NCBI GenBank assembly: GCA_963750165.1 | Contig: CAVVPN010000011.1 | Location: forward strand, 832,001-896,000 | Length of the DNA stretch: 64,000 nt | DNA from: an uncultured Gemmataceae bacterium | GTDB lineage: Bacteria; Planctomycetota; Planctomycetia; Gemmatales; Gemmataceae | Direction of reading: 5' to 3' | In this document: positions 41,731-54,048 of the stretch, piece after piece | Layout of the letters: each line of letters opens with the position of its first letter | Position numbering within the stretch: the stretch's first letter is position 1 | Made by a program: the position numbers and the translations under genes | Notes under the pieces: model-generated | Seen by the model: the letters and a program-made list of their open reading frames with translations, nothing else | Databases searched by the model: none | What the model was told of the DNA's origin: nothing

Positions 41731-43269
41731 TGTCATGGAACAATAGAAATGTCCGCATTTTGGGAACAATAAAAATGTCCGCTGTCACAGGGTTGTCACT
41801 TTTGCTTTTTGAACGGCTGCCGCCAGGGGTGATCTTCGGCTGGACCGCGGCGCCGCTTCGGGGTATCTTCCCCCGCGCCGTCGGGAGGATAGGGCTCCGC
41901 AGGAGTGCGACCCGAGCGCCCGCCGGTCGGCTGCATGCCAGTCGGCTCGGCCCCCTCACCCGGGGCCGGGCTTTCTTCTTCCCCATTGGCATCGGCCGCC
42001 AAGGCGTTAAACTCCGGGGGTCTGGGGGCTCTGCCCCCAGGGCGGCACCCCGCTGGGACCTCCCGGTACTTCAGATAGCGGCCGCCGAAGCGGATCGCCA
42101 GCTCCCCATCCAGCCGCAGTTCGATCACCACTTTGCCGCCGCGCTGCCCCGGGTAGATCGGCTTGAGCAACTGATAGCAGCGGTTGCGGAAGCGGATCGT
42201 GTAGTCGTTGGCGACCACGCGCTCCTCCTGGAGCGACAGGATCGCCGCCAGGTCGTGCGCCGGCCCCAGCGGCCGGTGCGCGTCGCCGACGTGCCGCGCC
42301 GCCTGGGTGAAGCGGCGGTTGTGCGCGGGCAACAGCCGCTCCAGCACCGCATTGGCCTGCGCAGGTGGTCACCCCCGCCAGGCGCAGTTCCTTGACCCAC
42401 CGATCCTGGGCGGTGCCGAACGAGCGCTCGAGCCGCCCCTTGGCCTGCGGGCTGTGGGCGCGGATCAGGCCGATGCCCAGCTCGCGCAGCGCCCGGCCGA
42501 ACTGGGTCTCGGCGTCCGGCAAGGCCTTGCCCTTGTCCTGGGGCGCGAAGATGCTGTGCCGGTCGGTGTACAACTCCAACGGCCGGCCGAACCGGCGCAG
42601 CCAGCGGCCCAGCAGGTCCAGGTGCGTCTCGGTCGTGGCCGCCGGGTAGAAGCGCGCCAGCACGCGGCTGGTGGCGTCGTCGATCAAGCTGATCAAGACC
42701 ACCTCCTCGCCGCGCCCCTCGAGCCAGTCGTGGATCGAGGCGTCCATCTGGACCAGCTCGCCGAAGCAGGCGCGCCGAGGCCGGCGGCTGCGGTGTTGCT
42801 CGCGGCGGCGCTGGCGCTGCCACAGGCCGGCGGCCAGCAGCCAGCGGCGCAGCGTCTGCGGGCAGACCACCAGCCCCTCCTGGGCCAGCTTCTCGCTGGC
42901 GAAGGGGGGGCCGAAGTCGGCGTAGCGCTGGCGGTAGGCCCGCAGGACGGCGTGCCGGAGGGCGGCGTCGGCCTGGTGGTTGGAAGGCTGGCCGCGCAGC
43001 CCGTGGACCAGGGCGTCGTCGCCGTGCGCTTCGAGTTGCGCTGCAGGCGGCGGACCTGGCGGGTGCTGAGGTCGAGCACCCGAGCGGCCTCGGCCTGGGT
43101 GCGCTCGCCGCGCAGGACGCCGTGCATGACCTTGAGGACATCGCGTTCCTTCTGGCTCATGGCGATCCGGTCTGTGGGAAGCACGTCGATAGGCATGGCT
43201 CCTCCTTGGCCTGGGCAAGGAGGACATTTCTATCGCGTTAAGACCGGACATTTCTATTGTCGTTCAACA
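41731..43269 (-). mobile_element. IS1202-like (ISNCY) insertion sequence; transposase about 41796-43196 with two frameshifts
   Basis: TGT...ACA ends with repeated ACAATA(G/A)AAATGTCC boxes at both ends. HTH plus integrase-core motifs GELVQMDASIHDW, LIDDATSR, LYTDRHSIF, HSPQAKGRLER. Confidence 0.85.
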
Positions 43270-43483: not shown

Positions 43484-43549
43484 GAAGTATCCGGTACAGA
43501 ATCCGGTACGCCGGTACGGCACCCGATCGGTCTGTATTGAGACACTTAG

Positions 43550-45287
43550 CCCGGATTACGCACCGTGCGACATTACCGGCGCATAATATCTCTTGAATGA
43601 CAGGCCGTTCGTTTGTGTGGGTTGGCGCAGCTGTTGTCCTGGGCTTTTGCAGCTGCGCAACCCCTTTTTCCCGCCCCCGGCGCGCACCGCGCCCGCCGAC
43701 GGCCGCGCGGGCCGTCTACCAGGCCACCAACCCTCAGTTGGCCACCCCTTCACCGACTGGCACCCGCCCAGCCACCTGACTCACATAGCGCCGCCACTGC
43801 CGCCTGCACCCGCAGCCACACCCCCCGGTACGGCCAGGTCTCCGACACGTGCAACCACACCCGCCGCGCGCTCGTCACCACGACGGCACCGGCCTTCCAC
43901 AAGCGCTGCCGCAACGTCCCCACGGACGCCGTCGCCACCTCGGGCACCGCTGCCGCCGCCTCCCGGAAGAGCACCACCACCGCGTAAGCCAGGGCATGCA
44001 CCAGCAAGCGGAAGGCGTTGGCGCAGAAGCCGCAGGCGCTCAGCCGGTCGCAGCGCAGGCCGTTCTTCATCTCCCCGATCGGCTGCTCCGGCACTTGGCC
44101 CCGCGGCGTGTACAGCCCGTGGTAGACCTCCGCCGGCGGTTCGGAGCGGTTCGTGACCACGAAGCGCCGCTGACTGCCGTGCGGGTTCATCTCCACCTTG
44201 GCGATCACCCGCCGCGCGTGCGGCCAACTGCCCGCCTGGTAGTCACGCACCTCCTCGAAACGCTGCACGTGCGGCTCGCGCGCGCCATAAAACTGGTAGT
44301 ACAACTCCACATCCGCCAGCGCTGCCGCCGTGGCCCGCTCCAGCACCGCATTGCTGGCGTAACCGCTGACGTAGTCCAGGTGCTCGGCTTCGCAGAACTC
44401 CTAGACGGCGGGCACTCCCAGGCCGTTGTCGGCGCGCACCAGGATGCGGACCTCGGGCCAGGCGGCGCGCAGGGCGGCGACGATCGCCCCGAGGATGTCC
44501 ACGGCCCCCAGGCTGGCGTGGATGGCGCCGGGCCGTAGCCAGACGGCCAGGGGGAAGCCGCTGTGCCCCTCGTAGACGTGCAAGGGCAGGAACTGATGCT
44601 GCCGGTAGTAGCCGTGGTAGCCGCTGAGGGCCTGCGCACCAGGGGTGGGATCGTCGCTGGCATCGGCGTCGCGGATCACCTCGGCCGGCGCCTGGCCGCG
44701 CGTGCGGATGAAGAGGTCCACCAGGTAGCGGTTGAGGATCTTCAGGCGCTGGGTCTGGGCGGCACGGACCTCCTGGAGGACGGGCCGTTCTTCGGGGGGC
44801 AGTTCGGCATCGCGGCGGCTGAAGGCGTAAGCGAAGCGCGCCAGCGTGCTACCCGAGGCGAGGGGTTGCTCGGCGTCGGGACTGACGTCGGCGCGGATCT
44901 GGAAGAGGGGGTCGGCGCGGAGGTCGTCGTGGTCGTTGTGGTCGGGGTAGCCGGCGAGCAGGGCGTAGACCTCCTGGGTGAGCAGCGCCTCGACGGAGTG
45001 GCGGATGAACTTGGGGGAACGCGGGTCGGGCAGTTGGGGTGCGAGGTCAGCGATGACGCGCAGGGGGCGTTCCAGGGCGCGGACGGCGAGCAGGCCGGCA
45101 TCGGCGACGAGGCGGCCGCCCTGGAAATCGATAAGGAGTTGTTGCGAGCCAAGGTTCCACAGGGTAAGGTGGTCGGTAACTTCGGGAGCCATGATCTTGA
45201 GCCTCCACAGATGGTTAAGTGCCGGTCATCACAACACTTAACTACTGTGGCAGGCTCTTTTCACAAATCCTCGGTGCGTAATCCGGG
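43550..45287 (-). mobile_element. IS1380-family insertion sequence; transposase 43750-45192 inactivated by an in-frame TAG at 44401
   Basis: Perfect TIRs CCCGGATTACGCACCG, flanked by TTAG/CTAG. FQGGRLVADAGLL, GYHGYY, LRPG, VRADNG, RG..EQPIGEMKNG motifs. Confidence 0.9.
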
Positions 45288-46411
45288 CTAGGAAGTGCGT
45301 ACCGGGGCTCGGTCGGTGAGGATGAAAAGGAATGCCGTTTGGGATTGCCAGGTAAACGCCGGTGACTGATTCCTTGTCTGCAGCTCAGCCGCACTGGAGG
45401 CGTCTCTCGGTCTGCCGCCAGGGTGTTTGACACCGCCCTGGTGGACTCTTCGCATTTGCCGGGTGGTCGCCCTCAACTTTCTCTGCGACCGAATGGGGCT
45501 GTTGTCAAAGTCGGGTTAACAAAAGCTCCATTGACGACCACAAGACGGACAACGCAGATTGCAAAACTTCACAAGATTGCTTGCCCCGTGACGGCGGATA
45601 ACCGACCATCCACCCCTTCCTTGTCGCGTGGGTGCTTTTTTCAGGGAAAATGGCGAGGTTGGCACGGTGCCGCCCACAACGAGGAAGTATCCAAGGCGGT
45701 TGGGTGGCTTCCCAGCGGCGAGTTGGAGACGTTGAACGGGTGCGACCTCGACAACTGTCGGATCCATTCGAGGTTTCGCGGCAGACTTCCCCAGGGTGCG
45801 GCGCCCGGAAGTCTGTTCCCTGGTCCTTCTTCTCGTCGCCTGTGCCGCCTGGCTGCCGTGCGACATTTGGCTCTTCCATGAGCGTCATAGGCTGCACCGG
45901 ACACGCAAAACGGGGTTTTGCCCACCCACCCCCTTTCCCACGTCCTGTTGCACGAACAGTGCGATTCTTCGCCACACCTGGCACTCCTTCCCGGTCCGCC
46001 TCGCCGATCGCAGGGTTTTCTTGGTCCGTTTCACTCTGGGCGTCAGCGGGCAGACAGGAGAGCCTGAGCGGCAACCTCGGGCGCAAGTCCCGACCGTGAG
46101 CAAAGGTTGCTGCCAGTCCCGGGTGACGCACGTCGTCGGCGCGGTGACTTCCTGGCGCTCGTCAGCCCGACGCTCTGGGCGTAGCCCCCGAAAACGCATC
46201 GCTGGGGCGGACGACGCGCGCAACGGCCATTGGCTTGCCTGCGCTTGTCGATGTGACCGGAGAGCCCAGCGTGACGAGGCATATGCGCGGCGGTGGTCGG
46301 GACCGAAGCACGATGCAGAATTGGGTTTAGCCGCCAATCCCGGCGAGCGCAGCGGTTATGGCCGCACCGACTCCCACAGAGCCCACTTCGGATAACGCCC
46401 TACAGCGCCTG

Positions 46412-46567: not shown

Positions 46568-48075
46568 GAGACTTTAGCATAGCCGGTGACCGAATCCGGC
46601 CCGACCAGGCGTAAAATGAATATAGGGGGGGCATTTGGGTGTGGAGGGCACAGCCATGTTCGGACCAGGCGAGTACGTCCCGGACGTCACCGAGGGCATT
46701 TCCTCGCCCGAAGACCTCCCCAAGCCGCGCCGCGAACGCCGCAGCCGTAACTACCGCGCACGCCGCTGCCCCCATTGTGGTGCCCGCGCCGGCCGCTACA
46801 GCATTGACGTCCGCACCTTGCACGACCTGGGCGACCCGCGCGTCGGCCGCCCCATCGACCTCAGCGTCACCTACTCCAAACATCACTGCCCCCACTGTGA
46901 CTGCTACTTCGCCGTCGAGCTCTCCGACCTGGCCTGGCCCAAGTGCCACTACACCCGCCGCGTCCAGGAGTTGGCCGTCCGCCTGGTGGCCGAGGATGGG
47001 CTGCCCTACCAGGCCGCCTCCTGGCATCTCTGGCGCGACCACCGCGTCTTCGTCCCCTACGCCACCATCCAGAACTGGGTCGAGGCGGCTGGGGAAAAAA
47101 AAGGTGGCCGGCCTGTCCAGCACCTATCTCGACGAGGCCCTGGCTGACTTCTCCGGTTACCTGGCCATCGACGAAGTCTACGATGGCCCGCACTGCATCC
47201 TCAGCGTGGTGGATAACCGCCGCTACCACCGGCTGGCCGTCCGCGTCCTCGAACACGACCCGACGCAGGACGACGTCCGCGTTTTCCTCACGGACTTCCA
47301 GGCGCAGTTGCAGCAACGCGGCCTGGCCGTGCGCGGCATCACCACGGACGGGTCGCCGCTTTATCCCAAGGTGCTCAAGGAGTTGTGGCCTGCTGTCCCG
47401 CACCAGCGTTGCCGCTTCCACATCCTCAAGGAGATCACCAAGGCGGTACTGCGGGCGCTGGCCAAGTTGCGCAAGCAGATCAAGGCCACGATCCCCAAGC
47501 AGCGGCGCGGCCGACCCCGCCAACAGGACCAAGCCCAGGCGCGGCGGAGCCAGCGGTTGCAGCAGCGCGTCGCGGACCTGTTCGAGCACCGTCACTTGTT
47601 CGTGCGACATCACCTCAGCGCGGCCCAGAAGCAACTGCTGAAGCGCCTGACGCGCGGCCAGCCGCACCTACGTGTCTTGCGTGACATCATGGACGAAGTA
47701 TACCGCTTGTTCGACCGCCGTTGCCGGCGAGTGACAGCGCTGTGGCGTCTGCTGAAATTGCGGCAACGGGTGCGGCGGTTCAAGCGCCTGGCGCGTGCCT
47801 TGCGGGAGTTGAATAGTCCCGGTTTGGCCAAGGCGCTGCTGTTTTTGGATGACCGTTTGTTGGGATCGACAAGCAACGCGGTAGAGCGGGCCAATCGGCG
47901 TTTCCGCAAGGCGCAGAAGAGCATCTACGGAGTGCGGACCAAGCAGCACTTGGACCAGCGCCTGGCCTTGGACATGAACCGCGAACTGCGCGCTGGCCAA
48001 CGCGCTCGGACTCTGAAAACCCTGCACCACGCTCGCTCCGATCCTGATTCGGGCCACTGTTGATGCTAAAGTGTC
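46568..48075 (+). mobile_element. DDE insertion sequence (ISL3/IS256-like, CxxH motif); transposase 46656-48063 split at G4A8
   Basis: TIRs GAGACTTTAGCAT / ATGCTAAAGTGTC; 8-bp TSD AAGAAATC (46560-46567, 48076-48083). Zinc finger CPHC..CPHC, LAIDEVY, ITTDG, HQRCRFH, TSNAVERAN. Confidence 0.88.
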
Positions 48076-48469
48076 AAGAAATCACCCCTTTTTCTTTCTG
48101 ATTGTTGGAGAAATGCGCGCCAGGGCCACGGCGCGTCGCAGATGGCCAACGCCTTTCCGAGTAACGAGTTGTGTCACCCACACCCAATTTCCTACCAGCG
48201 CAGGCGCTCTCATTCCGAGTCTCGGGCGGACCCCGCGCGGGACGCGAACTGCATACAGAAATGTCGCGCGCGTGTTAACCGGATTGGGGAAAAGTTCGGG
48301 CGCCAAAACCTGGAACAATCCGGTTAACGGGGCGCGCGAGCGCGCGACTGCCTTCAGCAGACTTCCTCCTGCTCCCGAAACAGCGAGCCTCGCGACTCCT
48401 GCCTCGGCAAAGGCCGTGTCATCTCCCAGGCGGCGCCTTGGGGAGGTTCAACCTGAATCTCCACTTCCC

Positions 48470-48674
48470 TTAGCATTCCACCGAGACATGCACCGAAATA
48501 TTGGGGGCGCGTCGCCATGGACTGATGAATCCTGTTCGCCTCGGCGACGAAGTTCGCGAAGGCTTCGTTGCGGATGATCACGTTCCCCTCGTCGGTCATT
48601 TTGAACAACTCAGACATGTTCTCGCTGGGCAGCTTGAGTGCCAGCGAGCTGGAATGACCAGTAATCTGCGACAT
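48470..48674 (-). CDS. Probable RiPP precursor peptide (about 67 aa after correcting a 1-nt frameshift near 48505)
   Basis: AGGAGA RBS, MSQITGHSSS...FKMTDEGNVIIRNEAFANFV. Removing one C from the C-run gives ...ATRPNISVHVSVEC-TAA, followed by a hairpin. It lies directly downstream of the rSAM gene. Confidence 0.6.
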
Positions 48675-48759
48675 GGAAAATCTCCTGATAGTGCTGTCGG
48701 GCGTGATGACACAGGTTTCATGCGGCCGGTTCCGCCCGATTCTCCCGGCCGAGCATGAT

Positions 48760-50877
48760 TCAGTCTGATGCCAAAGCATACTTATAGCAGTTCAGGGATG
48801 TCAGACCAGTGCCATTATCGCAATGTCCGATTGTCTGGAGCGCCTCCTGAAGGCGCTGAAGAACCCCGACACCGGGAGCGTAAGTGCCCAGCGGCACTGC
48901 CAGGGCGAGGTAACTGTCCTTATCTCGGAGCAATAAGCCACGCCCGCACATGGTTTCCAGCAGGAGTTCGACCCTTTCCACACCGGGATACTGTGCAGCA
49001 GCTGCACGCTGTAGATAGGGAAGCGTGCGTACCTGATCGCACTCCAGGTAAAGGAACCGTGCGAGCCTGGAGAGCGTCACCAACGGCGCGCCGGCAACCG
49101 GCCGAAAATCCCAAAGCAGCAGCCAGGGTCCGACTTCGAGAGAGAAGAAATCGGTCTGCGGATAGGAGCTCTGCCAGTCGGCGATCCGACGCGCCAGCGG
49201 GGCCGTGTAAGTTTGCGTGTCAACCCGATCCCTCCGGTCGTAGACAAAAAAGTAGGCGAGATTATGAACTGCCTCCTCGGAGAGGGGATAGACATACGAG
49301 TACGCAGGGTAGGGTCTCACGTTCTGGAAGCCGTGCTCCGCAGGTGTCTCAAAGTTGGGACTGAACCTGTCCAAACGAATCGATGAGGCGCCGTCAGGTG
49401 GGGGCAAATGGGAGAGCAGCGGTATCAGCGCTTCCATCCGGACGTATTCGGCAGGAGGCTCTCCCGGAAACCCCCAGATGATATTCCAGGATGGCACGAT
49501 ACCCAGTTCTTTACACCACTTGAGTAGTTGGATGTTCTGGATCGCACTTACCCCCTTACGCATCAGTCTCAACACGGCATCGCTCAGGCTCTCGATCCCT
49601 GGTTGGATTTGAGTCACTCCGGCCTTGCGGAGCAGGCGTAGCTGCGCCTTGGTTAGATTCGCCTTCACCTCATAGAACAACTCAAGACCTGAGCCGCTCG
49701 GCCCATGGGACGGGGCGGCGTTTCGCGCAGCGAGCGCTGGGAGAAAGTCCGAAAAGTAATGCATGTCCAGGATATTATCGACCACGGATACCTGCAAACC
49801 GGGGTGGTGCCGGCTCAATGCTTCCAGTTCATGCAAAGCGCGAGCGGCCGACTTGCTCCGGTGCGTCATGGTCTGGCCGTTGAGACCACAAAACGTGCAG
49901 TGATGTTTCTGGCCCCACCAGCAGCCGCGCGAGGTTTCGAACAGCAGCCGGGGCCGAACCGGCAAGTCCATTTCTGCACATTGGAGTTGTGTGAAGAAGT
50001 CATCAAAGTCAGGCACGGGTAAGTCGTCCATCCGCGCTACTTGCGGTGCGCTGTGTACCGGCCCTTCGGCTCCGATGTCCTGGCGAGTCAGCACCCCCGG
50101 GAGGCCAGCTCCGTCATGACCCTCCAGCGCCCGCATGGCTAGCTGAGTGATGATCATTTCGCCAGGGCCCGAGACGACCGCATCGACGAACGGGAATTGT
50201 CGGAGCAACTCGCGTCCCATCATGCCCTCGCAGTTGGCGCCGCCGAAGACCAGGAGAGTCTCGGGGAGCCGCTCACGAAGCTGGCGCGCCAAGGCCAGCG
50301 ATGCAAGGTTCTGCTGGAATACTGTTGTGAAGCCGACCATCCGTGGCTGTCGCGCGCTGATTTTCTCCACGCAGGCTTGGAGGAACGACGCGACGCGCTG
50401 GCGAACGCTGAGTAATTCGTCCTGGAACTCCTCGGAAACCTTCCTTCGGTTCTCCGCCGTTTTGTGGTGGGCTGGGTGCCCCCCCCGCAGGACTTCTCGG
50501 AGGTACTCCCACGCTGCTGAATCCGTCTGCTGGAAAACCGCAGCCGAAAAGATCCACTCCCCTGCTAGGTCGTGATTGGCCGGGGCGCCGGCTGCGATCT
50601 TGGAGTAGACGGTCGGATTTACTTGCTGAGCGAAGTCGATCCCGAAGTAAAGGATTTCTGAAGCGATCCTGTCGAACGCCAGCTTGGCTTTCAGCAGGCT
50701 AAGTCCTAGCGAAGGTGTCAGCAACGGGGCGAAGGGCATGGAGACGAACAAAATCTCAGCGCGCGTGGGTTTTTCGCGTACCGGCCACGGCAAGGGGTTT
50801 GTTGTGTCCGCGTTCGATAGTCCAGGATGAAGTTGAACGGATGACGTTCCTCGCTCAGCCAAAACGGGTAGTTCCAT
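48760..50877 (-). CDS. RiPP maturation radical SAM C-methyltransferase (cobalamin-dependent, TIGR03975-like)
   Basis: ILFVSMPFA...PSLGLSLLKA, LAGEWIF, B12-binding VGFTTVFQQ...GGANCEG, the atypical Cx7Cx2C motif RGCWWGQKHHCTFCGLNG, QPGIESLS, WNIIWGFPGE, RLDRFSP. Lower GC than the flanks. Confidence 0.9.
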   Translation of the reverse strand: MELPVLAERGTSSVQLHPGLSNADTTNPLPWPVREKPTRAEILFVSMPFAPLLTPSLGLSLLKAKLAFDRIASEILYFGIDFAQQVNPTVYSKIAAGAPANHDLAGEWIFSAAVFQQTDSAAWEYLREVLRGGHPAHHKTAENRRKVSEEFQDELLSVRQRVASFLQACVEKISARQPRMVGFTTVFQQNLASLALARQLRERLPETLLVFGGANCEGMMGRELLRQFPFVDAVVSGPGEMIITQLAMRALEGHDGAGLPGVLTRQDIGAEGPVHSAPQVARMDDLPVPDFDDFFTQLQCAEMDLPVRPRLLFETSRGCWWGQKHHCTFCGLNGQTMTHRSKSAARALHELEALSRHHPGLQVSVVDNILDMHYFSDFLPALAARNAAPSHGPSGSGLELFYEVKANLTKAQLRLLRKAGVTQIQPGIESLSDAVLRLMRKGVSAIQNIQLLKWCKELGIVPSWNIIWGFPGEPPAEYVRMEALIPLLSHLPPPDGASSIRLDRFSPNFETPAEHGFQNVRPYPAYSYVYPLSEEAVHNLAYFFVYDRRDRVDTQTYTAPLARRIADWQSSYPQTDFFSLEVGPWLLLWDFRPVAGAPLVTLSRLARFLYLECDQVRTLPYLQRAAAAQYPGVERVELLLETMCGRGLLLRDKDSYLALAVPLGTYAPGVGVLQRLQEALQTIGHCDNGTGLTSLNCYKYALASD

Positions 50878-51249
50878 GATCTCCTACTCCGAATATTCAT
50901 GGCCAAGTGACCGGACGACGCCACTCAGTAGCGGCATCTTTCTCGACGAATGTTCTCATCTGCGATTTATGACGCGCCCGTTTTCCCCGAATGATGAAAC
51001 GCGCCATCATCTGGCAAGGCCAGTTTGCGCGGCTGAGGTGAGAGCGGGAATACTGCGGGGTCGTCCCGCTCAACATTCCGGAGTTGAACACCTGCCGCGA
51101 TCTCTGTCAAGAAAAATCAAGAAAAAGATTCCGCCAGTGGCTGGTTGCCGCGGTGTCCGCGCAAGCATCTGAACATCGAGCACGAGCATTGCCGTGAAAC
51201 GGCGTTGCTCGAAAGGCCGGCTACGCTGACGAGCCAGGCGACAGGAGAG

Positions 51250-51375
51250 GTATTTCGCCGGGGCCACCCACACGGTGTAATAGGGGTTGACGAAAACGGC
51301 CTCGCGAACTCCACGGAACGTTGAGCCGTCGTACGCGTGGTCTTCCTCAGTGAAGCCTCGTGAGCCCGGCATCAT
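51250..51375 (-). pseudogene. Truncated 5' remnant of a catalase-like gene, paralogous to 61082-62344
   Basis: AYDGSTFRGVREAVFVNPY matches EYDGSTFEEVREVVFREPY of the 61-kb gene, then similarity is lost. Confidence 0.6.
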
Positions 51376-51435
51376 TCCACCGTGGCTGGGAATTTGTTTC
51401 GTGCCAGCGTGGGGCGACAGGCAGCGGCCCCGTGT

Positions 51436-54048
51436 TCAAGCAGGGGCATCCCCATCTGTAGCAATATTGTGACTGTCCTGTACGAACAGGTTCTCACCCA
51501 CGTGCTCTCCGAGCTTGCGGTAGCTCTCCCACTGCGGCTCGTCGAACAACTGGTCGAGCGTGGTCTCGTTCGGGAAATCCAGGTGAAGGGCGGCGTAGTT
51601 TAGCACGTCAGCCGGTTCGTCCCCCGTGACCGTCGCCTTCAGGTAGAGCAGCCAGGTGTGCCGGCGGTTGACCCACGGATCCCCCGTCGGCTCGCGCGGC
51701 CCGGGGGGATAGCGGACGAGGAAGAGGGCGGCGTGCTTGCGGGAGAGTTGGTCCGCGGCGGTCAACAGGTCGCTGCGGGTGCCAAGGTACGGCGCCACCG
51801 AACCCGGTACGCCCTGCTTATGCAAGGCCACGGGGTCCGGGTCCACTTCCTGGATCTCCGCCTCGAGGTCCACCCGCGCCAGGCGGACGAGGTCGCCGAT
51901 GTCCGTCCCCTGGCGGGCCTGATCCTGCCCGGCGTCACAGATGATGACGAAGGGCACGCGCCGGCGGAGCAACTCGTACGCCCCCGAGTTCTCGAAGTTG
52001 CCGCCGTCCGACAGGTACCAGTAGCGGTACCAGGGGCCGCCGAACCGGCCGACCAGCTCGCTCAGCAGGAGCGACTGGGCACGGAACCAGTGCGACAGGC
52101 CGACGGTCACCGCCTGCCACAGGCCGCCCTTGACCGGCACGTCCCGGCGCTCCTCCACGTTCAAACCGGAGTTCCACCAGTACCCCAGGCGCACGTTGGC
52201 GAGGGTGAAGAGCAGGGCCTTGCCGAGCCCGGTGTTGCGGCCCATGCCGGGACTGACGGCGGCCCCGGAGATGGCGACCCATTCGCGCAGGTCGAGCGAC
52301 TCCACCGGGACGGGATCGCCCGCGCGGTCCAGGAACGGGTGCGGGCCGCCGTCGGCCGCCAGCGGAACCAGGGTGTCCCCCTGCGGCGCGTCGCCGGCCC
52401 ATAAGGCGTGCCACCGCTGCGCGACGTTGACCCCCGCGGGCCCCACGGCCAGGTTCTCGGCCTGGCGGTCGCGCAGACCGCGTTGCGAGGCCACGTCGAT
52501 GGTCTCGTTCACGGCGCAGTTGATCAGGTGGAGCGGGCCGCCGGCCGCGTGCGGCGCGTACTGGTCGAAGGCCACGTCGTCGCCCGGCACCACGGCGGTG
52601 ACGTTCCGCCCCTCGAGGTGCAGCCGGCGCTGCGGGTTGACGGCCCCCAGGAAGGCCCGCGCCAGCCGGCTGGCGTAGATCTCCCGCGGGCCGGAGCGGT
52701 TGATGAACGGCACGCATGCCCGTGTCCCCAGGAGCAGGCTGACGGCAACGGCGACGGCGGTGACCGCCATCCCCGGGGCGTAGGCCGCCCCGGCCCGGTA
52801 GGCGGCGTGACTGGCGAAGGACAGCACCACCAGGATCGGTAGCGCCCCGAGGACCAGGACCGCCACGGCCAGCACATACGGCCACTGCTTCTCCAGGAGG
52901 CTCGACCCGCGCTCCGCCCGCGTGAGGAACCAGCCTGACACCATCCGCAACAGGGACACCAGCCCCAGGAGGAACCCGCTCATTGAGGCGAACCAGACGG
53001 TGACGTTGCCGGCGTGAAAGCCCCCGCCTGCAAGCATGAACTGGGCCAGCCACCGGCCGAACCAGTCCACCACGCCAAGCACCGCGAATAGCAGCCCGGC
53101 GGACAGCCAGAACGCCAGCCGGGCCGTCAGGTGGTTGCGGGCGCGCAGCAGGCGGTAGCGGTTGCGCGGGTCCACGGCAGGCCCCTCGCTCCGCCGCACC
53201 GCCGCCCACGCCCCCAGGGCCCAGCACACCGTCGCGGCGAGGACGATGACGCTCAGCGGGCTGGAGGTGGCGATCAACACGCTGACGCTCACGAGCGCGG
53301 CCGCCACCAGGGCCGGGGCGATGAAGCTTTCGAGCCGGTCCTGGGAAACCAGCCAATACGCGGCCATCAGCGGCAGCACCGCCAGCCAGAGGATGATCTC
53401 GGCGAGGCCCGCCCATGGCCCCGGCCACTGGGCCGTCAGGTTGCCGGCGAGCGGCGTCAGTGTGGCGAGCAGGCCCGCGAAGGTCGATTTTACCGCCCCG
53501 TACGGGCTACTGTAGTTGACCGCGTTCAGCACGCCGAAGACAGCGAAGATGAACACGGCCAGGACGAACTGGACCGAGAGCAGGTTGCGCCAGAACCCGG
53601 CGACGTTGGTGAGCACTTCCCCCAGGCCGGTCGGGGACAGGTAGTTCGAGTTCTGCCGCAGCCAGAGCATCGGGGCCGAGTTGCCGTCGCGCAAGTCGCG
53701 GGCCACGCGCGCCTGGGCCGCCCCAGGGGCCTCGTCCGGGACGGCGCCGGTGAGCCCCCCGGGCTTGCCGCAGAGGTCGAAAAAGCGGCCGAGGAAGGCG
53801 CCGATGTAGCCGCCGCCGGACACGGTCGAGAGGAAGTCCACGTGCCGTAGCCAGCCCCGCCGGGCCAGGGACTGCAGGACGCCGAGACAGAACGCGGCGC
53901 TGCGGATGCCACCGCCCGAGAGCGCCAGGCCCAGCGTGTCGCCGGGAAGGCCACCTGGCTGGGTCTCGGGGGCCCCGGCCGGGCCCGGCCCCGCGGGGGG
54001 CTTCAGCGTCAGGAGCCACGGCTGGGGGCGCGGCGGTGTCATGCTCAT
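51436..54048 (-). CDS. Patatin/cPLA2-like phospholipase with a central multi-TM insert
   Basis: GLALSGGGIRSA (oxyanion), STVSGGG (nucleophile Ser), LSDGGNFEN (catalytic Asp), about 10 hydrophobic segments. Confidence 0.85.
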   Translation of the reverse strand: MSMTPPRPQPWLLTLKPPAGPGPAGAPETQPGGLPGDTLGLALSGGGIRSAAFCLGVLQSLARRGWLRHVDFLSTVSGGGYIGAFLGRFFDLCGKPGGLTGAVPDEAPGAAQARVARDLRDGNSAPMLWLRQNSNYLSPTGLGEVLTNVAGFWRNLLSVQFVLAVFIFAVFGVLNAVNYSSPYGAVKSTFAGLLATLTPLAGNLTAQWPGPWAGLAEIILWLAVLPLMAAYWLVSQDRLESFIAPALVAAALVSVSVLIATSSPLSVIVLAATVCWALGAWAAVRRSEGPAVDPRNRYRLLRARNHLTARLAFWLSAGLLFAVLGVVDWFGRWLAQFMLAGGGFHAGNVTVWFASMSGFLLGLVSLLRMVSGWFLTRAERGSSLLEKQWPYVLAVAVLVLGALPILVVLSFASHAAYRAGAAYAPGMAVTAVAVAVSLLLGTRACVPFINRSGPREIYASRLARAFLGAVNPQRRLHLEGRNVTAVVPGDDVAFDQYAPHAAGGPLHLINCAVNETIDVASQRGLRDRQAENLAVGPAGVNVAQRWHALWAGDAPQGDTLVPLAADGGPHPFLDRAGDPVPVESLDLREWVAISGAAVSPGMGRNTGLGKALLFTLANVRLGYWWNSGLNVEERRDVPVKGGLWQAVTVGLSHWFRAQSLLLSELVGRFGGPWYRYWYLSDGGNFENSGAYELLRRRVPFVIICDAGQDQARQGTDIGDLVRLARVDLEAEIQEVDPDPVALHKQGVPGSVAPYLGTRSDLLTAADQLSRKHAALFLVRYPPGPREPTGDPWVNRRHTWLLYLKATVTGDEPADVLNYAALHLDFPNETTLDQLFDEPQWESYRKLGEHVGENLFVQDSHNIATDGDAPA

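Follow-up and report, generated by a model that had tools for sequence, protein, structure and literature searches.

Methylation of unactivated peptide carbons at the beta position is rare and, to our knowledge, has so far been tied to polytheonamides and clavusporins. Clavusporin is produced by the mpc cluster of Streptomyces clavuligerus, which encodes the precursor MpcA, the cobalamin-dependent enzyme MpcB of the radical S-adenosylmethionine (rSAM) type with a Cx7Cx2C motif, and the DUF5825 protein MpcC (Zhang and Seyedsayamdost, bioRxiv 2024, PMC10849626). According to that preprint, MpcBC beta-methylates V4, I6, I8, T7 and the prolines P2 and P11 of KPSVGITITVPFR in a leader-dependent manner, the methylation makes the peptide a surfactant that is required for aerial growth, and the 229 clusters covered come from Actinobacteria without exception and share a single gene order; short precursors in which Val and Ile alternate are reported there too. 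Here we describe a locus in a window of 64,000 nucleotides (nt), the whole stretch of DNA analyzed, from an uncultured Gemmataceae bacterium (contig CAVVPN010000011.1), in which an rSAM gene of the same enzyme subfamily is followed by a small open reading frame (ORF). The pair probably constitutes a two-gene locus for a ribosomally synthesized and posttranslationally modified peptide (RiPP): by analogy with the described systems, beta-carbon methylation by the rSAM enzyme is predicted for the alternating Ile and Val residues of ISVHVSVEC, a core that is cut from its leader by a frameshift in the DNA as assembled. The window copy is likely a recently broken or misassembled member of an undescribed peptide family.

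Comparison with described peptide methylation systems

MpcB (WP_003958123.1, encoded on pSCL4, where its gene neighborhood was confirmed in the published order) is a member of NCBIfam TIGR03975 (623.9 bits), as is the window rSAM, and the two enzymes are 37.7% identical over residues 106 to 660. They share the same GCWWGxKHHCTFCGLNG version of the Cx7Cx2C motif and a similar C-terminal region, and both are paired with a precursor made up of a leader plus a short core. The MpcA core carries alternating beta-branched residues (V-G-I-T-I-T-V) that are described as beta-methylated, and the window core alternates too. In contrast, MpcA is a 39-mer with an unrelated leader, in which inspection revealed no F-x-V-N-x-x-G-x-V-V-I motif, the two enzymes fall in different halves of the enzyme tree, and the window locus has no DUF5825, S9 peptidase or major facilitator superfamily (MFS) gene. 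DUF5825 gave no such Pfam match in the ORFs flanking the rSAM gene, and an MpcC query found no match at E ≤ 0.01 in the genome (93% complete), on which the DUF5825 Pfam model itself was not run. Neither the MFS transporter nor the S9 peptidase that lies upstream in mpc-type clusters was found among the 21 ORFs scanned between 40 and 61 kb, nor was any other protease or transporter, as the preliminary description of this DNA had stated. Furthermore, the window family occurs in lineages such as Bacillota and Acidobacteriota, either as the enzyme-peptide pair alone or together with genes of the M16 peptidase, winged-helix and MFS kinds rather than with S9 and DUF5825 genes. A Streptomyces locus (L022) considered as mpc-type was rejected.

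The product had been assigned to an unknown class in the preliminary description. That assignment has to be corrected, since the clavusporins form a class of peptides with alternating V/I/T/P whose beta-C-methyl groups are put on by a TIGR03975 enzyme (PMC10849626). What appears new here is the leader family and the cluster type, the kind of chemistry being known already from polytheonamides and clavusporins.

The other comparison is with the proteusins, exemplified by polytheonamide with its precursor PoyA and the enzymes PoyB and PoyC. As described in a review (PMC11285071), these two enzymes are cobalamin rSAM C-methyltransferases acting on Val and Ile beta-carbons, and PoyC, which beta-methylates Val/Ile in polytheonamide formation, is described with a Cx7Cx2C motif as well. 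A TIGR03975 locus of Nostoc (L050) joins an NHLP leader to a window-like core, RVKISVSVEF. However, neither an NHLP nor a Nif11 leader is present in the window peptide (no NCBIfam match at E ≤ 1, versus 96.4 bits on TIGR03793 for the L050 control), no epimerase or other proteusin enzyme is encoded adjacent to the window rSAM gene, and the window core is about 10 residues long versus about 48.

The enzyme gene and its C-terminal domain

The gene for the putative cobalamin-dependent radical SAM peptide C-methyltransferase occupies positions 48760..50877 on the minus strand as an intact ORF of 705 amino acids (aa). Its product scored 647 bits (cutoff, 281.85) on TIGR03975, the NCBIfam model entitled "RiPP maturation radical SAM C-methyltransferase," in an alignment that covers the whole profile (1 to 606 of 606) and residues 42 to 661. 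This score, together with the presence of a Cx7Cx2C motif, confirmed the earlier assignment of the gene to this subfamily. Pfam Radical_SAM matched with 60.5 bits; Pfam B12-binding, at 27.6 bits, stayed under its gathering score of 32.1, the region concerned lying inside the TIGR03975 alignment, and TokK and TsrM were weak sequence matches from the PDB over residues 151 to 358. The cluster motif reads C319-WWGQKHH-C327-TF-C330, and its three Cys residues are invariant across 25 aligned homologs. It is the only TIGR03975 gene in the genome.

The last approximately 150 residues (48763-49212, minus strand) were modeled as beta1-beta2-beta3-alpha1-alpha2-alpha3 plus a wing, with a predicted local distance difference test (pLDDT) score of 86.7. 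Among 48,161 PDB representatives, the top match of this beta3-alpha3 model was TbiB1 with its leader peptide (5v1u_A; Z 8.6, root mean square deviation 2.3 over 75 residues), a PqqD-like RiPP recognition element (RRE) of a lasso peptide system, and further RiPP RREs listed among the matches were the lasso B1 protein 6jx3_B (Z 7.8), MibB, TigE and CteB. A Foldseek search of the domain against the PDB returned nothing at E ≤ 0.001. We infer from the structure model that the leader may dock on this C-terminal RRE-like domain.

A precursor ORF broken between leader and core

The small ORF begins downstream on the same strand, behind a spacer of 85 nt between the rSAM stop and the precursor start (48675..48759). 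This arrangement agrees with the preliminary description, in which the spacer had been given as 86 bp, and the strong ribosome-binding site proposed there is present as AGGAG (48686-48682), with a distance of 7 nt to the ATG. The region holds a single promoter-like match (48804-48775), versus a mean of 0.9 in shuffled sequence.

As written, the ORF runs from the ATG at 48674 to 48354 and encodes 106 aa. Codons 1 to 57 (48504..48674, minus strand), MSQITGHSSSLALKLPSENMSELFKMTDEGNVIIRNEAFANFVAEANRIHQSMATRP, form the leader part, which matches the profile of the peptide family described below. The frame break follows at 48503..48511 (minus strand) and comprises a run of five C (48503-48507), an insertion site at 48508/48509 and a substitution at 48511, where the window has C and an approximately 93%-identical relative has G on the minus strand; the assembled 10-nt string at the break, also on the minus strand, is ACGCGCCCCC. 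Past the CCCCC run, the frame obtained by dropping one base reads PNISVHVSVEC and then TAA, as had been read before. The core NISVHVSVEC (48502-48473) and its TAA stop (48472-48470) thus lie out of frame with the leader in 48470..48502 on the minus strand, and a read-through of the break gives a peptide of 57 + 10 = 67 aa. The frame as written continues instead through codons 58 to 106 and its stop (48354..48503, minus strand), a tail that was rightly called featureless, as residues 58 to 106 have no family match or homolog; we take it as noncoding read-on. Scans of the 106-aa ORF against Pfam and NCBIfam gave no meaningful match, and a word-index homolog search in 5.8 billion proteins returned only its own entry.

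Four alternating Val/Ile residues within the last 12 are found at 66 of the 170,527 six-frame ORF ends of this genome. This pattern marks 0.04% of the genome's ORF ends versus 28 of 46 family peptides (within their last 14 residues), and the alternating tail of the out-of-frame core is not a chance feature. When the same 170,527 ORFs were searched with the family profile, the window ORF was the sole one under E 1 (E 0.0013). We then scored its different versions on a profile of 33 family peptides from which the window was excluded. The ORF as written scored 22.6 bits in an alignment that ends near residue 49, the leader alone 24.4 bits, and the read-through with an X at the break 33.7 bits in an alignment that reaches the profile end. 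An earlier profile of five sequences gave 23.6 bits for the read-through versus 14.9 bits for the ORF as written, and profile alignments of the latter stop near residue 49 to 58. The ORF as written therefore departs from the family in length and frame (52 to 75 aa, with the core in the leader frame), the core being present in the DNA but out of frame. With a recognizable leader family, adjoining TIGR03975 genes and a profile fitted by the read-through only, these data supported the earlier reading of a frameshift-hidden RiPP precursor.

An unannotated family of precursor peptides

Residues 1 to 57 of the window ORF belong to a peptide family with the leader L-x4-F-x-[VL]-N-x-x-G-x-[VL]-[VI]-I followed by a helix-like stretch, in which the Gly is invariant and the Leu and Phe are conserved in at least 90% of members. 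At seven independent loci, a family member immediately follows a TIGR03975 gene. Of 73 genome loci recovered with the rSAM, six (L001, L005, L006, L008, L009 and L015) have a family peptide 19 to 62 nt after the stop-to-stop frame of the rSAM. The peptide of an Eremiobacterota-type metagenome-assembled genome (MAG; L001) reads ...EDGKLVIKSKSFAALV...TSIIHVAVEAKIIHK, that of an Acidobacteriaceae member (L005) ends in ...VEVSVSVTVKF, those of Lysinibacillus (L006, L009 and L015) in ...GVVISISVSV, and that of Pseudalkalibacillus (L008) in ...GIKVSVSVSV. A Niallia plasmid (L089) also carries a family peptide after a TIGR03975 gene. Scanning metagenomes with a seven-row peptide alignment gave four loci, comprising one true locus identical in three records (L084 to L086) and a false match (L087), and scanning them with the closest family member (P0057) plus the window leader gave no confirmed locus. 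In L084, the rSAM gene lies directly upstream of the peptide gene, and its product is 49% identical to the window rSAM, the closest found. Placement of the peptide gene immediately behind a TIGR03975 gene, with both on one strand, is thus common to the window (85 nt), L001, L005, L006, L008, L009, L015, L084 and L089. The preliminary description had suggested collecting small ORFs beside TIGR03975 genes: they do have a conserved leader, of which the D-x-x-G-N-V-I-I noted there is the window version, and a VxVxV-type C terminus.

A profile of the six-locus peptides found 17 more by word search in the 5.8-billion-protein set, and a filter-free profile search of 1.84 billion cluster representatives yielded 54 matches at E ≤ 0.001. 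The latter consist of the window ORF, 38 short peptides, including 5 two-leader forms of 88 to 117 aa, and 15 long repetitive proteins (296 to 5,740 aa) that match via many short repeats and were set aside from the family. Altogether, 46 single-leader members were retrieved, all of them 52 to 75 aa long (median, 60.5), and the 106-aa frame, whose conservation would have spoken for the long product, is conserved in no homolog. Four alternating V/I stand within the last 14 residues of 28 members, and a further 10 show three alternating V/I/T there. None of the eight members scanned had a match in Pfam or NCBIfam. P0057 is 48% identical to the window leader and ends in ...QTMARASTEVTVSVSVKF, where the window has ...QSMATRP and then the out-of-frame NISVHVSVEC; an ESM Atlas search with P0057 gave no usable match.

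In a tree of 34 rSAM rows, all eight leader-carrying enzymes fall in one 13-row group (SH-aLRT support, 86), with the window enzyme as sister of L084 (92). The fuller clusters (L006, L008 and L084) contain further genes, for an M16 peptidase, a small protein of the winged-helix type and an MFS exporter, and L001 and L005, like the window, hold the enzyme-peptide pair only. "Minimal RiPP locus," the earlier term, is therefore apt for the window pair but not for many of its relatives. The family occurs in Bacillota, Acidobacteriota, Eremiobacterota-type MAGs and metagenomes, its hosts including the cultivable Bacillaceae Lysinibacillus, Pseudalkalibacillus, Rossellomorea and Niallia as well as uncultured soil and wetland lineages. 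A literature search found no description of this leader family, subscription journals having been mostly outside the search, as was the precursor table of the clavusporin preprint; the leader family and the cluster type appear undescribed.

Some members deviate from the common form. The Niallia peptide (L089:6932-7102, plus strand, on a 121-kb plasmid) is annotated as a 56-aa "hypothetical protein" 26 nt after the TIGR03975 gene and combines the family leader LTSDDFYITPRGEVVINNSKL with a nonalternating tail, ...LLAAIWQDII. The two-leader forms of 88 to 117 aa are P0032, P0050, P0053, P0060 and P0031, four of which have Cys-rich tails such as SSNCSCTNYYCA. In the Pseudalkalibacillus cluster, a second family peptide with the tail ...GIAPDLSIKP lies upstream (L008:2818-2985, plus strand, and P0006/P0007/P0026); having two peptides with different tails, this cluster would encode two precursors with different cores.

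A near relative in a wetland metatranscriptome

Two sequencing runs share words with the locus (word shares, 0.06 and 0.04). One of them (X1) covers 49063-49213 only, and the other (X2) is a wetland metatranscriptome run stored as contigs, in which we found a 237-nt contig aligned to 48466-48699. It differs from the window by 14 substitutions (approximately 93% identical) and by two gaps, both single letters inserted behind 48508, with no other indel. An insertion of two bases has the same effect on the frame as the loss of one, and the leader frame of this relative consequently continues into the NISVHVSVEC frame. The contig retains the five C, the difference being two bases beside the run and not the run length. 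The earlier account of the lesion as one extra C is therefore sound as to the shift of frame but is only one way to describe it, the relative having five C and two more bases just upstream. Eight substitutions were located and worked out by hand: four are synonymous, and the others are A12V, N19S, I34L and T55R, the last of which gives ...SMAR, as in P0057.

The X2 contig is nearly coextensive with the precursor ORF, starting 25 nt ahead of the ATG and ending 4 nt beyond the TAA. Its extent weakly hints at a short, abundant precursor transcript, although contigs cannot show RNA ends.

Predicted function

We propose the following route for the peptide. After the predicted docking of the leader on the C-terminal RRE-like domain of the rSAM, the core would be methylated at every second residue, that is, at I, V, V and V of ISVHVSVEC. 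By analogy with MpcB and clavusporin and with PoyC, the methylated residues would all face one side of a beta-strand, resulting in an amphipathic, very hydrophobic peptide. Leader removal and export would be carried out by unlinked genes here and by the M16 peptidase and MFS genes in the fuller relatives.

The family as a whole may represent a scattered RiPP class, defined by the L-x4-F-x-V-N-x-x-G-x-V-V-I leader and a core of 9 to 12 residues with alternating Val/Ile, which a stand-alone TIGR03975 enzyme would beta-methylate at every second residue through its built-in RRE-like domain and without DUF5825. We consider this generalization an even proposition. If it is true, the mature peptide would form an amphipathic beta-strand, one face of which would consist of tert-leucine; it might be a surfactant, as a nonactinobacterial counterpart of the clavusporins, or might self-assemble or act on membranes. 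After polytheonamides and clavusporins, the locus points to a third precursor family that this enzyme subfamily serves, one that is unannotated and has an accessory set of its own (M16 peptidase, winged-helix protein and MFS protein), and two questions become testable in tractable hosts, namely, whether the enzyme works without a DUF5825 partner and what the role is of a strand hypermethylated at every second residue. Intact relatives from cultivable Bacillaceae offer better leads than the window copy, which is of limited value until its frameshift is checked against reads. As to annotation, the gene caller's 106-aa "hypothetical protein" conceals the 10 informative residues.

Several observations weigh against this interpretation. 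Methylation of the window core is argued by analogy only, and MpcB needs a DUF5825 partner, which is neither adjacent to the window rSAM nor matched in the genome by the MpcC query; either the window subclade works without DUF5825 or the clavusporin analogy is weaker than it appears. Regarding the RRE-like domain, ordinary winged-helix regulators come within 1 Z unit of the TbiB1 match, and Pfam PqqD has no match in the window rSAM, a difference from PqqD-like RREs at the sequence level. Within the family, 8 of the 46 peptides have other, nonalternating tails. No family peptide was detected for 5 of the 13 clade enzymes; in the case of L016 at least, the contig stops immediately behind the gene. 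As for the wetland relative, 6 of its 14 differences are unlisted and none of those listed lies less than 22 nt from a contig end, so that identity is callable for 48488-48510 (P-N-I-S-V-H) only, and the last approximately 20 nt of the tail, with the last codons and the stop, are outside the comparison. The run is an RNA library, yet contigs are no proof of transcription.

Alternative explanations

With regard to the break itself, we lean to a real, recent mutation over an assembly error, holding this with even confidence. Since the enzyme gene and the out-of-frame core are both intact, any decay would have to be recent. A loss of 2 nt beside the run fits the data equally well as an in-frame codon difference between lineages combined with one extra C in a run of four.

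The strongest competitor, to which we give a little less than an even chance, is that the organism carries an intact gene and that the frameshift arose as an error in the assembly or its consensus, for instance one C too many in a four-C run; the bacterium would then make the 67-aa peptide and have a working minimal RiPP pair. The genome (9.6 Mb in 12 contigs of up to 3.56 Mb) looks like a long-read assembly, in which homopolymer indels are the usual residual error, its near-identical insertion sequence (IS) copies differ by six distinct 1- to 2-nt indels over approximately 17 kb, and the rSAM gene, the out-of-frame core and its stop are otherwise undamaged. On the other hand, a run of five bases is short for a homopolymer error, and the X2 relative keeps the five C and differs by two bases beside them. 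Moreover, 13 open frames of at least 5,000 aa (268,620 nt in all; longest, 11,412 aa) are uninterrupted, which suggests that an indel rate of even 1 per 10 kb is unlikely genome-wide.

A less probable explanation accepts the enzyme and the peptide as a true pair but supposes a different chemistry, either methylation elsewhere or another cobalamin radical SAM reaction. The window subclade does stand apart from MpcB in the tree and lacks DUF5825, MpcBC methylates Pro and Thr too, according to the preprint (PMC10849626), and cobalamin radical SAM enzymes are chemically diverse (PMC12931638). We regard it as unlikely, given that the enzyme is a full-length member of a subfamily named C-methyltransferases by NCBI and that the sole conserved position class in the cores is the alternating V/I, the residues methylated by MpcB and PoyC.

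The break could also, with very low probability, be bridged in translation, in a programmed or leaky manner, if peptidyl-tRNA-Pro on CCC (48506-48504) slipped by +1 to the next CCC and AAU were read next; a certain amount of full-length precursor would then arise from the assembled sequence. The site reads CGC-CCC-CAA, and a CCC-C quadruplet is a +1-prone site for tRNA-Pro; the next codon in the 0 frame, CAA, is the less used of the two for Gln (15% of them in 522 long ORFs), and the core and stop are intact in the +1 frame. However, CAA is not rare, at 6.2 per 1,000 codons, the site has no Shine-Dalgarno-like stimulator or stop codon, and the shift is not conserved, the X2 relative and all other family members having leader and core in one frame. 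Yields of +1 slippage at such sites are expected to be around a percent, and it is very improbable that the precursor in this genome is made only via a slip at CCC-C. Least credible of all, and hardly worth retaining, is the idea that the 106-aa ORF yields the true product, with the alternating out-of-frame tail being a coincidence: the frame is open and has a good ribosome-binding site, but residues 58 to 106 match nothing, all single-leader relatives keep to 52 to 75 aa, the alternating pattern has a background of 0.04% in this genome, and the two-base difference of X2 breaks the long frame.

Genomic context and downstream hairpin

The GC content is 58 to 60% over 48.0 to 51.5 kb versus approximately 70% on both flanks and 65 to 67% for the contigs, and this low-GC segment abuts three insertion sequences within 41.7 to 48.1 kb, in agreement with the low-GC insert next to an IS reported before. 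The nearest is an ISL3-like IS at 46568..48075 on the plus strand (Pfam DDE_Tnp_ISL3, with terminal inverted repeats), one of four copies in the genome, the other three of which show 99.3 to 99.9% identity. The others are an rve-type IS (41740-43260; four genome copies) and a DDE_Tnp_1_4 IS (43547-45290; three genome copies), the ORF of which covers profile positions 6 to 231 of 435. The window copies of these two elements differ from all other copies by 1-nt indels.

Forty genomes from the same family, order or class yielded no ortholog of the rSAM, the best hit being 30% identity to other cobalamin rSAMs. Because of this absence, together with the low GC content and the flanking IS elements, we infer that the locus was acquired horizontally. 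No remnants of M16, winged-helix or MFS genes were detected near the locus, and the genome has only distant M16 and MFS homologs elsewhere. Two upstream ORFs, 51070-51375 (minus strand) and 50876-51172 (plus strand), were treated as noncoding, as neither has a counterpart in the loci or shows a GC signal by codon position. Elsewhere in the genome, the 13 giant open frames of 5,000 to 11,412 aa are on contigs C3, C4 and C12 (e.g., C3:3184541-3218776) and presumably encode megasynthases.

The hairpin that had been placed just after the TAA was not recovered, since the 81 nt of 48480-48400 fold no better than shuffled sequences (z +0.61) and hold no terminator-like site. A strong hairpin is present farther on, approximately 130 nt after the TAA, at 48264..48339 (minus strand), between the precursor gene and the ISL3-like IS. 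It has perfect arms of 13 nt, GTTAACCGGATTG, flanked by GC-rich pairs, and a folding energy of -40.9 kcal/mol (z -3.58; 1 of 200 shuffles as good). The arms contain GTTAAC, and the arm motif is otherwise found once in the genome, on contig C3. An Rfam scan of 47900-51600 gave no match. The proposal of an attC-like site is not supported, although the hairpin is real: GGTTAAC and GTTAACC do not, by inspection, fit the attC core consensus, RYYYAAC/GTTRRRY, and the scan of ORFs from 40 to 61 kb revealed no tyrosine recombinase or integrase. As no integrase was found there, the hairpin likely marks the end of a transcription unit and not an attC site.

Similar cores on other leaders

The alternating core type recurs beside TIGR03975 genes with other leaders, in Nostoc and in ten alphaproteobacterial-type loci. 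The precursor of Nostoc foliaceum (L050:3457-3840, plus strand), which lies upstream of the TIGR03975 gene and has the NHLP leader (TIGR03793), ends in GG followed by RVKISVSVEF, a core resembling the window NISVHVSVEC on an unrelated leader. The ten further loci (L033, L034, L036, L041, L044, L049, L058, L062, L063 and L065), mostly from Bradyrhizobium, have a conserved peptide of approximately 88 aa about 1 kb upstream of the TIGR03975 gene (e.g., L034:2601-2864, plus strand), which ends in ...SGGVQAGTIHIDIL or similar. The L034 peptide has no Pfam or NCBIfam match, and the peptide of these loci looks like another unannotated precursor family with an alternating core. Finally, a short frame about 400 nt after the rSAM gene of L047 (L047:5085-5174, plus strand) reads ...AEIDIDIDIDIDIAIGWYES and may be either a precursor-like alternating core or a simple DNA repeat.

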